Of a stretch of DNA of 64,000 bases, positions 54,856 to 58,429 are shown one piece after another. The notes under the pieces are model-generated. The model ran no database searches, was not told the DNA's origin, and was given only the letters and a program-made list of their open reading frames with translations. The stretch lies in assembly GCF_000026545.1 (NCBI RefSeq), contig NC_011601.1; one strand, 5' to 3'. The position numbers and the translations under genes were made by a program. Every line of letters starts with the position of its first letter. The stretch's first letter is position 1. Source of the stretch: Escherichia coli O127:H6 str. E2348/69. Its GTDB lineage: Bacteria; Pseudomonadota; Gammaproteobacteria; Enterobacterales; Enterobacteriaceae.

Positions 54856-56250
<1,395 letters not shown>

Positions 56251-56258
56251 TAAAGACA

Positions 56259-56292
56259 AGGCGCAACCTTCACGGGTTGCGCCTGTGTTTTT
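56259..56292. terminator. bidirectional terminator between mdtK and ydhQ
   Basis: aggcgcaacc-ttcacg-ggttgcgcct hairpin followed by a T-run. Confidence 0.75.
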
Positions 56293-57547
56293 ACGCAGGC
56301 TGGAGCGTTGCGCCAATCCCATCTTCGTCTGGCTGTAGTTTCAGTGCGTTACACAGAGTTTGCCGACTGGCATCTGTTATCTCAACGTTTATATCACCAG
56401 TAACTTCCCCTTTCACATTGATGAAGTCAGGTGAAATTTCTTTCGCACTGGTTTGCAGGCAAATCGCTCCCTCTCCGCGCAGGCGTTTCACTTTCAGTTG
56501 CACATGCGTTGCCGTACCAGTGATTAGCCACAGTTTTCCGCCATTGAGATTGATGTTACCAACACTGAAAGTGACACCGTCACCTTTTACCGTACTGCCG
56601 TCGAGAATCAATACACCGCCCTGCTGTACAGTAATCGTTGATTGTTGCAGATCTGCGCCATAGCCAATAATCATTGAAGCGCCGTCCAGTAATGCAACAC
56701 TCCCGGTCAGTTCAACCGGTGCGCGATCTTCCTCTACGACAAAATTTTCGTCCGCGCTGGTGGGGGACAACAGGATGACTGTCCCACCTTGTATTACCGC
56801 ATTTTCCAGCGTACCGGCATGCACTTCAGCCCGACCACCCACATTAACGGACAGGTTTTGCGTCTTACCGGAACTGTAGAGCTGAAGACCATCCGTCCCC
56901 AGACGATAAGTGGATCCATTCTCAACAATAGTGTCAGAGTCTTCACCACCGAGATTATTCATGGTGCCACCAGCAAGCAATGTATCACTGGCTTTCCCCG
57001 CCAGCATAAAAACGCCGCCCTGATTAATCTCACAATTGCTGGCTTCCCCACCTGGATACACCAACAATTCACCACCTTCATCTACCACGACCGCTGAGGT
57101 TGTCCCATTGACCAACAGGCCACCCTCTTGATCGAGAATAATTTTTTCCGCGCGATGGCCTTCCAGTACACGCAGGTTACCGCCGTTTTCCAGCAACAAA
57201 CCGCAGGCATAACCTTTATCAACGCTGAATTCACCTTCGGGATGGCGGCCATTAACCGTAGCGAGAGTAGAGAGACTAATTGCGCCTCCCTCGGACTGAA
57301 CAATATCTGTGGCAATGGCACCGTCGCTGACCGATAGCGTGCCATTGTTACCGTACTGTGTGCATTTGGCTATCCCACCGGTTGCCACTTTCAACCAGCC
57401 AGCCCCCGTGACCACGGTATTTTCGGCTCTTCCGCCAGCTTCAACAATCAACTCGCCTTCAGTAAGTTGCGTCGCGCCAATAACCTCGCCGGTCTTAACA
57501 ATTTGCACGTTCCCGTCGCTCATCAAGTTTTTCGCATCAGATCCCAT
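56291..57547 (-). CDS. ydhQ: autotransporter-adhesin-related protein YdhQ (beta-helix repeats)
   Basis: 418 aa, Gly/Thr/Asn-rich repetitive passenger-like sequence. Confidence 0.85.
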   Translation of the reverse strand: MGSDAKNLMSDGNVQIVKTGEVIGATQLTEGELIVEAGGRAENTVVTGAGWLKVATGGIAKCTQYGNNGTLSVSDGAIATDIVQSEGGAISLSTLATVNGRHPEGEFSVDKGYACGLLLENGGNLRVLEGHRAEKIILDQEGGLLVNGTTSAVVVDEGGELLVYPGGEASNCEINQGGVFMLAGKASDTLLAGGTMNNLGGEDSDTIVENGSTYRLGTDGLQLYSSGKTQNLSVNVGGRAEVHAGTLENAVIQGGTVILLSPTSADENFVVEEDRAPVELTGSVALLDGASMIIGYGADLQQSTITVQQGGVLILDGSTVKGDGVTFSVGNINLNGGKLWLITGTATHVQLKVKRLRGEGAICLQTSAKEISPDFINVKGEVTGDINVEITDASRQTLCNALKLQPDEDGIGATLQPA

Positions 57548-57854
57548 GATTTATTCCTTTGCTGCATCTGTGTGCCTTTATTGCTACCTAAGTGTAAAGG
57601 CTACGAAGGATTTATCCACGACTGATTTGAGATGGTGGCAAACAACTCTGTTAAAACTCTAATACACGGATTATTGGGTTGTGTCAGATGTAAATGCGAT
57701 CCTGAATAAAAATCACCCTTGCAAATCAACAAAATATAGCCAATTTGTTTAAAAGCTCTGCAAACGGTCGAAATACCGCAGAAAATTACATTTTGCCTCT
57801 TGCCACCTTCCCACTCTGCCGCTAATATTCGTCCCCGTTGTCACCTACAACGTT

Positions 57855-57931
57855 GCGTTCATAGCTCAGTTGGTTAGAGCACCACCTTGACATGGTGGGG
57901 GTCGTTGGTTCGAGTCCAATTGAACGCACCA
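57855..57931 (+). tRNA. valV: tRNA-Val (anticodon GAC)
   Basis: 77 nt with acceptor stem GCGTTCA/TGAACGC, anticodon loop cTTGACAtg, TTCGAGTCC T-arm, 3' CCA. Confidence 0.95.
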
Positions 57932-57935
57932 TCCT

Positions 57936-58012
57936 GCGTCCGTAGCTCAGTTGGTTAGAGCACCACCTTGACATGGTGGGGGTCGGTGGTTCGAGTCCAC
58001 TCGGACGCACCA
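57936..58012 (+). tRNA. valW: tRNA-Val (anticodon GAC), tandem second copy
   Basis: 77 nt, near-identical to the preceding copy (acceptor stem GCGTCCG), 4-nt spacer. Confidence 0.95.
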
Positions 58013-58045
58013 GATTTTCTTAATCTGGTCTTCTCTCTTCTTTTT
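58009..58045 (+). terminator. terminator after the tRNA-Val pair
   Basis: accagatt-ttctt-aatctggt hairpin followed by a T-rich tract. Confidence 0.6.
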
Positions 58046-58123
58046 TCCTCTGTTTCTTCCCTGTATCCAATGCGTTAAAAGATTTACACTGTCTCCTTAT
58101 GCGTTATCAGAAGGAGAATCGCT

Positions 58124-58429
58124 ATGGCAACTTTGTTACAACTTCATTTTGCTTTTAATGGCCCATTTGGAGATGCAATGGCTGAGCAGCTTAAACCGCT
58201 TGCTGAGTCGATTAACCAGGAACCTGGTTTTCTCTGGAAGGTATGGACCGAAAGTGAAAAGAACCACGAAGCCGGTGGGATCTACCTTTTCACTGATGAA
58301 AAAAGCGCCCTTGCCTATCAGGAAAAACGCACTGCCCGACTGAAAAATCTCGGCGTTGAGGAAGTGGTCGCCAAAGTTTTCGATGTCAATGAGCCTCTGA
58401 GTCAACTCAATCAGGCAAAACTCGCCTGA
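58124..58429 (+). CDS. ydhR: putative monooxygenase YdhR
   Basis: 101-aa ORF starting [22 protein letters not shown]. Confidence 0.9.

Follow-up and report, generated by a model that had tools for sequence, protein, structure and literature searches.

The Escherichia coli core gene ydhQ: an intact autotransporter-passenger interior that probably encodes a cytoplasmic protein

Ag43 (Flu), a self-associating autotransporter of type Va, is a protein of roughly 1040 amino acids, compared with 418 for YdhQ. The two have in common AIDA-type repeats in a right-handed β-helix and a pertactin-type junction region that starts at its C-terminal end, and Ag43 (4kh3, 7ko9, 7koh, 7kob) provides the best matches of YdhQ in sequence (E 2e-25 to 4e-22) and in structure (E ~1e-11). 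However, YdhQ has no signal peptide, be it extended or Sec, no linker helix and no PF03797 β-barrel; its autochaperone/pertactin domain (PF03212) is cut to model positions 1-78 of 121; it has a conserved 26-residue tail and an acidic loop of its own; and it is cytoplasmic in a published assay. Its scores against the NCBIfam models auto_Ag43 (88.9 bits) and auto_AIDA-I (51.3 bits, a partial match) do not reach the cutoff of 1200 that applies to each. The glycosylated TibA and AIDA-I share the repeat family (PF16168, TIGR04415) with YdhQ, which lacks their export modules and has mdtK and tRNA-Val genes as neighbors, with no adjoining heptosyltransferase gene. Small autotransporters of the P0098 type (two AIDA domains, Pertactin, barrel) are colinear with YdhQ, residues 72-486 of P0098 matching residues 2-392 of YdhQ at 28% identity, but P0098 retains an N-terminal extension, a complete Pertactin domain and the β-barrel. 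In this and two other complete relatives (P0154, P0157) PF03212 is matched over positions 2-120 and is followed by the PF03797 barrel; on sequence comparison, the architecture of P0098 is probably that of the gene ancestral to ydhQ. AIDA-repeat ORFs that have, like YdhQ, lost one or both ends include yejO, ydbA and fragments of Ag43. These are strain-specific and variable in length, whereas the length of YdhQ is fixed, its start and stop are conserved and its dN/dS ratio is ~0.1. Of the features that define type Va, then, YdhQ has the β-helical passenger and is without signal peptide, barrel and complete autochaperone.

The DNA analysed here (the window) is a stretch of 64,000 nucleotides from E. 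coli O127:H6 str. E2348/69. A sequence-only reading had placed a gene for a 418-residue, β-helical, adhesin-like protein in it, and the ORF list agrees with that position and length: an ATG-initiated frame of 418 codons and a stop, on the minus strand (Table 1). This is the longest possible ORF, because the listing starts at the first start codon past an upstream stop; there is no room for an upstream extension. RefSeq names the gene at identical coordinates ydhQ, "AIDA repeat-containing protein", and annotates its K-12 counterpart likewise. DNA identity is 100% to the annotated E2348/69 gene and 97.2% to K-12, whose protein differs by 7 residues, and the product is an equivalog of NCBIfam NF007409/PRK09945 (935.4 bits, cutoff 830, over model positions 1-418 of 418). 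The name ydhQ, as read from the letters, is thus correct; the gene was already known and its function is uncharacterized. The accompanying description of the protein as rich in Gly, Thr, Asn and Val holds for Gly (15.6%), Val (9.1%) and Thr (8.4%); Asn, at 5.7%, is only mildly raised, and Leu (10.5%) had been overlooked. Ala contributes 7.9%.

Table 1. Features of the ydhQ locus (positions and strands are those of the window)
Feature	Position	Strand	Basis
GC-rich hairpin, terminator-like on both strands, between convergent ydhQ and mdtK	56259..56284	.	Terminator scan, consensus match
ydhQ CDS (42.7 kDa, pI 4.4, net charge -26)	56291..57547	-	ORF list, RefSeq in E2348/69 and K-12, PRK09945 equivalog
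YdhQ-specific C-terminal tail, residues 393-418	56294..56371	-	tblastn autotransporter homology ends at 56372
Partial pertactin/autochaperone-type domain, residues 329-403	56339..56563	-	PF03212, E 1.3e-5, 25.6 bits
Conserved acidic loop, residues 261-280, SPTSADENFVVEEDRAPVEL	56708..56767	-	Ortholog alignment, AF2
AIDA-type strand-loop-strand repeat region, ~residues 12-260, rungs of right-handed β-helix	56768..57514	-	PF16168, TIGR04415, Ag43/TibA matches, AF2, periodicity
Intergenic region, divergent ydhQ/valV	57548..57854	-	Sequence reading, 7-lineage alignment
valV and valW, tandem tRNA-Val(GAC)	57855..58012	+	ARAGORN, Rfam RF00005

The gene is carried in an insertion of ~1.45 kb that extends from mdtK to valV/valW, the tRNA pair forming one of its edges. 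The gap between mdtK and tRNA-Val is ~1600 bp in Escherichia as against ~155 bp in most other genera, Salmonella and species of Citrobacter and Enterobacter included, and ydhQ is confined to Escherichia among the best 80 Enterobacteriaceae mdtK loci (E. fergusonii is not among these loci). The idea that other genera might hold the ancestral autotransporter at this place was rejected: the gap is empty there or is occupied by unrelated cargo (SDR, LOG-like protein, ZinT, porin). The single weak match (28% identity) lies ~1.5 kb past the tRNA genes of a Kosakonia locus (L074). At the mdtK end, 40 bp separate the stop codon of ydhQ from mdtK, and the hairpin has a stem of 10-11 bp with 7 GC pairs. 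At the other end, a Shine-Dalgarno sequence, AAGGA, is found at 57558-57562, and when the intergenic region is aligned across 7 Escherichia lineages, ~75 nt adjoining ydhQ and a block adjoining the tRNA are conserved, while the center varies. This conservation also singles out the putative promoter of ydhQ, TGGATA (57618-57613) and TACACT (57596-57591) with a 16-nt spacer. A standard σ70 scan yields no promoter on the ydhQ side, its sole find being on the valVW side (57800-57829, plus strand). Rfam matches across the locus are limited to the tRNAs and, close to ydhR, a family of antisense RNAs; none concerns ydhQ.

The degenerate repeats that had been noticed in the protein sequence belong to the AIDA family, whose strand-loop-strand units measure ~19 residues. 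Three separate parts of YdhQ match PF16168 (E 8.7e-29; 99.8 bits, cutoff 27), joined by the partial match of PF03212, while Pfam AC_1 has no match; the TIGR04415 strand-loop-strand repeats (NCBIfam) score 44.2 bits (cutoff 30); and the autocorrelation of residue similarity, with peaks at lags 17-19, 36 and 54 (z ~4, compared with 3.5 for the 95th-percentile maximum of shuffled sequences), gives a repeat period of ~18 residues. The crystal structures of Ag43 and TibA are matched in sequence by residues ~2-212. In the AF2 model (pLDDT 87.6, pTM 0.80; strands of the repeat region mostly at pLDDT >85) the protein is an unbroken all-β solenoid that has no barrel and no helix of at least 4 residues; so modeled, YdhQ is a right-handed parallel β-helix, pectate-lyase-like, of stacked three-stranded rungs, which the DSSP strand pattern fits. 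Foldseek places Ag43 (7koh, 7kob, 7ko9, 4kh3) and TibA (4q1q) at the top of its PDB matches (E 1e-11 to 1e-8), residues 55-350 of TibA providing the best local superposition (rmsd 3.7, target TM-score 0.77). Weaker matches are those to IgA1 protease, EspC and pertactin, and those to PL6 lyases, tailspikes and polygalacturonases (E 6e-3 to 1e-1 for the latter group). The passenger-like architecture proposed from the letters is therefore borne out, and the nearest solved folds are those of Ag43 and TibA, not a clear non-adhesin fold.

Two segments of the protein are its own. Of the 20 positions of the acidic loop, 17 are invariant in 10 orthologs down to 72% identity, and the loop exceeds the corresponding segment of ordinary autotransporters in length; in P0063 and P0098 the aligned segment has ~9 residues fewer. 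The AF2 model is of low confidence at loop residues 264-268 and 272-274. The loop may be a binding site. The C-terminal tail is without autotransporter homology and has ten residues that are invariant among orthologs (K403, L404, Q405, P406, D407, D409, I411, G412, A413 and L415). In the AF2 model it forms two terminal strands (402-406 and 411-417, pLDDT ~89) that possibly cap the helix.

Both of the ends that an autotransporter needs are missing, as had been claimed. The N-terminus of YdhQ, MGSDAKNLMSDGNVQ, is not of hydrophobic or basic character; the peak 10-residue Kyte-Doolittle mean of residues 1-70 is 1.19, compared with 2.4-2.9 in relatives that bear signal peptides, and the peak 19-residue mean over the whole protein is 1.28. 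Pfam matches no ESPR, SignalP 6.0 is negative (PMC13101318), and every YdhQ ortholog examined is likewise devoid of a signal peptide or hydrophobic segment. At the other end, the PF03797 barrel has no Pfam match in YdhQ at E up to 1, and no linker helix leads up to one. A tblastn search of the 64-kb window with 5 complete or partial autotransporters, for remnants of barrel or signal peptide, found homology confined to 56372-57550, which in YdhQ corresponds to residues 1-392; nothing that could pass for a complete translocator domain lies in the ORF or elsewhere in the window. Because it is without signal peptide and barrel, native YdhQ has no type V path to the cell surface. Its surface exposure, which the head-to-tail passenger contacts of self-associating autotransporters require for aggregating cells, is, to judge from the sequence, unlikely. 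"Adhesin-like" describes the ancestry of YdhQ and not a demonstrated function.

The literature speaks for a cytoplasmic location. YdhQ fusions without an added signal peptide are fluorescent and cytosolic, these being plasmid-borne fusions and not native YdhQ (PMC13101318). YdhQ is also one of 17 unannotated proteins classified as RNase-sensitive, UV-cross-linked RNA binders, a proteome-wide call without individual validation (bioRxiv 10.1101/2023.07.03.547468), and EF-Tu and YdhQ have been co-purified (PMC2672614). Together with the negative SignalP result these observations speak against the proposal that YdhQ is a true surface adhesin aiding early adhesion by self-association of the Ag43 type, the surface being reached by an unconventional route: the barrel of another autotransporter acting in trans, leaderless secretion, or release by lysis followed by binding to neighboring cells. 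The passenger is indeed of the AIDA/Ag43/TibA self-associating type, COG3468, to which YdhQ belongs, is represented in vesicle proteomes (at the level of the COG only), and a passage in a secondary source has ydhQ required for early adhesion (PMC9110714). Surface display has been claimed for YdhQ supplied with a foreign signal peptide (PMC13101318), a result that is hard to explain because YdhQ has no barrel. Against the adhesin proposal, fusions to agarase showed no activity at the surface (same source). The cross-linking to RNA and the co-purification with EF-Tu imply an intracellular pool, and the lack of signal peptide, barrel and linker helix weighs against the adhesin proposal as well. 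Moreover, ydhQ reportedly was not one of the four Ag43 homologues whose induction gave adhesion. We consider a surface adhesin improbable.

Heptosyltransferases of the Aah/TibC/EgtA type work in the cytoplasm, and a cytoplasmic YdhQ might act on the autotransporter pathway from there, as their substrate, decoy or regulator, or else as a template or chaperone for a passenger such as that of Ag43. The TIGR04415 repeat, whose cutoff YdhQ passes, bears the label O_hepto_targRPT and is of the type that these enzymes O-heptosylate, and TibA as glycosylated by TibC (4q1q) is among the closest solved folds. That ydhQ has such a role is nevertheless very improbable: K-12 keeps ydhQ and is not known to have Aah or TibC, and it would be odd for a gene of the core genome to serve an enzyme that is accessory.

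The sequence-only reading had also grouped ydhQ with truncated autotransporter-like genes that are often strain-variable, and here it was mistaken. Of 5426 complete E. coli genomes, 5424 have the gene at a coverage of at least 80% (95-99% identity), and its coding sequence is intact in all 10 genomes sampled (dN/dS within E. coli 0.11). Escherichia orthologs are all 418 residues long, the exception being a 419-residue protein in one divergent lineage (L084, 72% identity). Over all 15 pairs of six Escherichia lineages dN/dS is 0.078-0.114 with not a single indel at dS up to ~1.1; comparison with the L084 lineage gives 0.05-0.11 with dS saturated. These values resemble those of the neighboring enzyme genes ydhS (0.07-0.19) and ydhR (0.05-0.14); mdtK is at 0.00-0.03. 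The ydhQ of the window is an intact gene, core to E. coli and held by selection; by its substitution pattern it evolves under purifying selection, and it is not "truncated" in the sense of decay. Disruption is rare (ISEcp1 in strain AR_0013 is an instance). A second conserved family of short, leaderless, barrel-less AIDA proteins was considered and rejected: its would-be members (P0063, P0113, P0119, P0122, P0125, P0171) are frameshifted or contig-end pieces of yejO- and Ag43-type genes, variable in length.

In published work the ydhQ deletion is a neutral control and also provides a site for integration (PMC6962156; bioRxiv 10.1101/2023.03.28.534373), and no knockout phenotype or cellular function is known; such use is not easily reconciled with purifying selection of this strength, unless the gene has a niche-specific role. 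A dead remnant of a degraded autotransporter, persisting by chance or by hitch-hiking with essential tRNA genes, would account for the two missing ends, for neutrality in the laboratory, for tolerated disruptions and for the company of other decayed E. coli autotransporter genes such as the yejO fragments, but it can hardly be what ydhQ is, and the selection analysis already largely refutes it: a gene with neither indel nor stop at synonymous sites near or past saturation, intact and all but universal, conserved in its start, Shine-Dalgarno sequence, proximal upstream block, tail and acidic loop, and seen as protein in proteomes (PMC6561319), is poorly described as dead.

What ydhQ probably is, instead, is a selected, intact interior of an autotransporter passenger that now makes a cytoplasmic binding or scaffold protein. 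It originates from the inner part of a self-associating passenger of the AIDA-I/Ag43/TibA type. Next to complete relatives it is short of ~70 N-terminal residues, signal peptide included, and of everything past the middle of the autochaperone: the remainder of the autochaperone itself, the linker helix and the barrel of 12 strands; the conserved tail and acidic loop stand in the place of these parts. The insertion would date from the common ancestor of the sampled Escherichia or from an earlier time, the length of the protein being fixed ever since. With no Sec signal and no translocator to export it, native YdhQ would remain in the cytoplasm, folding there as a soluble and very acidic β-solenoid. 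Ancestry, architecture, core status, selection and insertion site come from the present analysis; location, EF-Tu and RNA come from the literature.

The role as a binding protein or scaffold we infer. Its partners would be cytoplasmic, the translation machinery or RNA being the only ones for which there are experimental hints; EF-Tu often contaminates affinity purifications. No PADLOC family of anti-phage defence matches YdhQ at E up to 0.01. A more specific version of the cytoplasmic reading, that YdhQ has been exapted as an acidic solenoid acting on RNA or the translation apparatus (EF-Tu, tRNA, ribosomes) in a niche-specific role, is possible and rather doubtful; YdhQ would then perhaps be a scaffold or a mimic of nucleic acid, and laboratory knockouts would not reveal what it does.

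Found in essentially every E. coli genome, ydhQ is commonly tagged "adhesin" or "autotransporter", and selection scans count it among genes for biofilm or resistance; positively selected sites have been reported (PMC9110714). Since two defining features of an autotransporter are absent, the "adhesin" and "autotransporter" tags state the ancestry of ydhQ only; since purifying selection on it is clear, it is neither junk nor assured to be neutral. Should its binding role in the cytoplasm be confirmed, YdhQ would be a clean case of intracellular re-use of a domain from a secretion pathway, and deletion of ydhQ as a neutral control would call for caution.

The open reading frame that the sequence-only reading called beta-helix adhesin-like is borne out by the ORF listing: it starts at ATG, encodes 418 aa and is the longest possible in its frame. 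Window DNA is 100% identical to ydhQ, "AIDA repeat-containing protein", of EPEC E2348/69, comparison with K-12 ydhQ confirms the counterpart (97.2% DNA identity, proteins 7 residues apart), and the product scores 935 bits on the YdhQ equivalog model (cutoff 830), aligning from end to end. The gene has a host-like GC content (51%) and stands in the standard arrangement cfa, ribE, mdtK, hairpin, ydhQ, spacer, valV/valW, ydhR, ydhS. Nothing supports the 128-aa, TTG-initiated ORF antisense to its 3' part, which most likely just reflects opposite-strand codon structure. Rfam places a full-model match to RF02194, "bacterial antisense RNA HPnc0260" (104.6 bits, gathering score 59; E 3e-14), antisense to the valW 3' end, the spacer beyond it and the ydhR 5' end. 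The ribE gene of E. whittamii stops 8 codons early relative to E. coli (position 206 of 213), probably a natural shorter C-terminus.

Coordinates of ydhQ, its surroundings and related features in other genomes
Feature	Record	Position	Strand	Remark
mdtK	window	54877-56250	+	convergent with ydhQ
mdtK-tRNA-Val gap	window	56251-57854
mdtK-tRNA-Val gap	L008-L082 (fetched loci)	around 7372-7530
GC-rich hairpin	window	56259-56284		between mdtK and ydhQ
Antisense ORF	window	56277-56663	+
ydhQ	window	56291-57547	-
Acidic loop, YdhQ 261-280	window	56708-56767	-	SPTSADENFVVEEDRAPVEL
ydhQ-valV spacer	window			307 bp, intergenic
valV + valW, tRNA-Val(GAC)	window	57855-58012	+
RF02194 match	window	57974-58140	-
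Split ydhQ	L083 (E. coli AR_0013, NZ_CP032204.1)	1753-4670
Segment 3' of mdtK	L003 (Escherichia sp. MOD1-EC7003)	4722-5672		951 bp
ribE	L004 (E. whittamii)	5147-5785

The degenerate repeats noticed in the sequence are real: Pfam AIDA is matched in three stretches (E 8.7e-29), TIGR04415 scores over its cutoff, and there is a periodicity of ~18 residues (z ~4). The AIDA repeats are followed by Pertactin (PF03212) at model positions 1-78 of 121 only. The Pfam search of YdhQ finds no match to ESPR, AC_1 or the PF03797 barrel, and hydropathy reveals neither signal peptide nor membrane segment, so the translocator and leader said to be missing are indeed absent; tblastn with complete autotransporters finds no leader or barrel remnant across the 64-kb window. 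The protein is rich in G (15.6%), L (10.5%), V (9.1%), T (8.4%), A (7.9%) and N (5.7%), with a pI of 4.4 and a net charge of -26. When 1.84 billion representative proteins are searched exhaustively with HMMER, 531 relatives emerge, the close ones being, besides the YdhQ cluster and short fragments, large autotransporters of 600-6000 aa. A second conserved family of short AIDA-repeat proteins was considered and rejected; the proteins concerned are variable-length yejO-/Ag43-type gene fragments. Residues 2-392 of YdhQ are colinear with residues 72-486 of a small complete autotransporter among these relatives (P0098), which then runs into a complete Pertactin domain and beta-barrel; YdhQ is therefore an inner piece of a passenger domain, missing ~70 residues at the N-terminal side and breaking off midway through the autochaperone region. 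Its last 26 residues lack autotransporter homology but are conserved in orthologs, and the model gives them two terminal strands.

AlphaFold2, given a 10-ortholog alignment, returns a confident all-beta solenoid (pLDDT 87.6, pTM 0.80), with low confidence limited to residues 1-11 and the loop at 264-274. The top Foldseek ranks against the PDB are Ag43 (7koh, 7kob, 7ko9, 4kh3) and TibA (4q1q), which the PDB sequence search also retrieves; other autotransporter passengers, polysaccharide lyases and tailspikes rank far lower. The acidic loop at residues 261-280, the sole internal region of low AlphaFold2 confidence, is near-invariant in all orthologs and ~9 residues longer than its counterpart in ordinary autotransporters. 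As candidate functional surfaces, this loop and the C-terminal tail peculiar to YdhQ stand out most.

With neither Sec signal nor translocator, native YdhQ is barred from the type V pathway. A cytoplasmic location fits the published evidence: SignalP 6.0 is negative, and YdhQ fusions lacking an added leader are fluorescent and cytosolic by microscopy, while agarase fusions are inactive on the surface (PMC13101318); YdhQ is detected in proteomes (PMC6561319), was co-purified with EF-Tu in an affinity screen of the whole proteome (PMC2672614) and belongs to a set of 17 unannotated proteins assigned to the RNase-sensitive, UV-cross-linked RNA binders (bioRxiv 10.1101/2023.07.03.547468). The missing export modules and these cytoplasmic data lead us to favor the explanation that an autotransporter passenger was taken over as a cytoplasmic, acidic beta-solenoid, which would work by binding cytoplasmic partners. 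Action specifically on RNA or translation is a tentative refinement that we consider possible, at well short of even chances. Counting against the favored explanation are that no ydhQ knockout phenotype is known and that the deletion serves as a neutral control (PMC6962156; bioRxiv 10.1101/2023.03.28.534373). Surface display of YdhQ is reported once a foreign signal peptide is added (PMC13101318), and nothing in the YdhQ sequence accounts for it. That YdhQ is a genuine surface adhesin arriving by an unconventional route is improbable, since YdhQ lacks the export modules and the cytosolic data speak against it. Slightly less probable still is a putative role in the cytoplasm as a substrate, decoy or helper, whether of autotransporter heptosyltransferases or of related passengers, for which the TIGR04415 repeat match and the similarity to TibA are the only hints.

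Regulatory hints are weak: ydhQ is a predicted CsrA target, and an FlhDC SELEX peak lies in the ydhQ-valV spacer. The ydhQ-proximal 75 nt of that spacer are conserved in all seven aligned lineages and hold TGGATA, a 16-nt spacer, TACACT and an AAGGA Shine-Dalgarno; TGGATA-16 nt-TACACT is a candidate ydhQ promoter.

The expectation that ydhQ would be strain-variable fails, since megablast finds it at ≥80% coverage in 5424 of 5426 complete E. coli genomes, with 95-99% identity in 5419 of the 5425 records with a match. The 1257-nt CDS is intact in 10/10 E. coli genomes picked evenly along the megablast ranking, and dN/dS within E. coli is 0.11. Orthologs in E. ruysiae, E. marmotae, E. whittamii, E. 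albertii and cryptic clades (80-90% protein identity) are all exactly 418 aa. In AR_0013, the one low-coverage match examined among complete genomes, ISEcp1 (IS1380-family) splits ydhQ into two pseudogene halves. One match in complete genomes falls in a plasmid sequence record, and in at least one genome the gene matches at three places. In MOD1-EC7003 the segment 3' of mdtK has no ydhQ homology and the contig end resembles a transposase reverse strand; ydhQ may be displaced or deleted, or the contig may be broken at an IS element.

"Truncated" in the sense of decay likewise does not hold: between lineages, pairwise Nei-Gojobori dN/dS is 0.078-0.114 in 15/15 pairs, and the alignments contain zero indels, even at dS ~1.0-1.15. 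Flanking genes give 0.07-0.19 (ydhS), 0.05-0.14 (ydhR) and 0.00-0.03 (mdtK). The C-terminal windows are least constrained (0.29-0.36, E. coli vs E. albertii, where dS is low). A published scan reports positively selected sites in ydhQ (PMC9110714); the gene-wide ratios found here leave room for a few of them. Set against the variable yejO/Ag43 fragments, the presence, fixed length and low dN/dS of ydhQ mark it as an ordinary working gene, not a pseudogene; a non-functional remnant, contradicted by this selection analysis, is very improbable.

Among the best 80 mdtK loci of Enterobacteriaceae species, ydhQ adjoins mdtK in Escherichia only. The distance from mdtK stop to tRNA-Val is ~1600 bp in Escherichia against ~155 bp in most other genera (Salmonella enterica subsp. 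arizonae, Enterobacter, Lelliottia, Leclercia, Trabulsiella and several Citrobacter species). Elsewhere the gap is filled by unrelated cargo: Pseudescherichia has a short-chain dehydrogenase (SDR), Klebsiella pneumoniae a LOG-like protein, Yokenella an Rce1-like protease, Pseudocitrobacter ZinT, Kosakonia a 2-hydroxyacid dehydrogenase and one Citrobacter species a porin. These findings make the mdtK-valV junction an insertion hotspot, with ydhQ as a ~1.45-kb insertion common to the sampled Escherichia lineages. An Escherichia-like lineage present in two Logan assemblies (SRR26188688/SRR26188687) has an mdtK that is 83% identical to that of E. coli at the nucleotide level and 95% at the protein level. 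These read-archive assemblies, the only source for the lineage, hold a 419-aa YdhQ ortholog (72% identity) in the same place, with dN/dS of 0.05-0.11 at saturated dS; the lineage is farther than E. albertii and extends the age of the insertion.

YdhQ is thus a member of the YdhQ equivalog family with a passenger of the same type as the self-associating AIDA/Ag43/TibA autotransporters. Unlike a classical autotransporter it has no signal peptide, no beta-barrel and no complete autochaperone domain; for it, "autotransporter" or "leaderless autotransporter" therefore denotes descent, not mechanism. Because databases and the literature already record the gene, its adhesin-like annotation and the missing leader, the finding itself is known; what is added here is core-gene status, purifying selection, the exact truncation points, and how the insertion, at a hotspot next to tRNA-Val, is distributed among Enterobacteriaceae.
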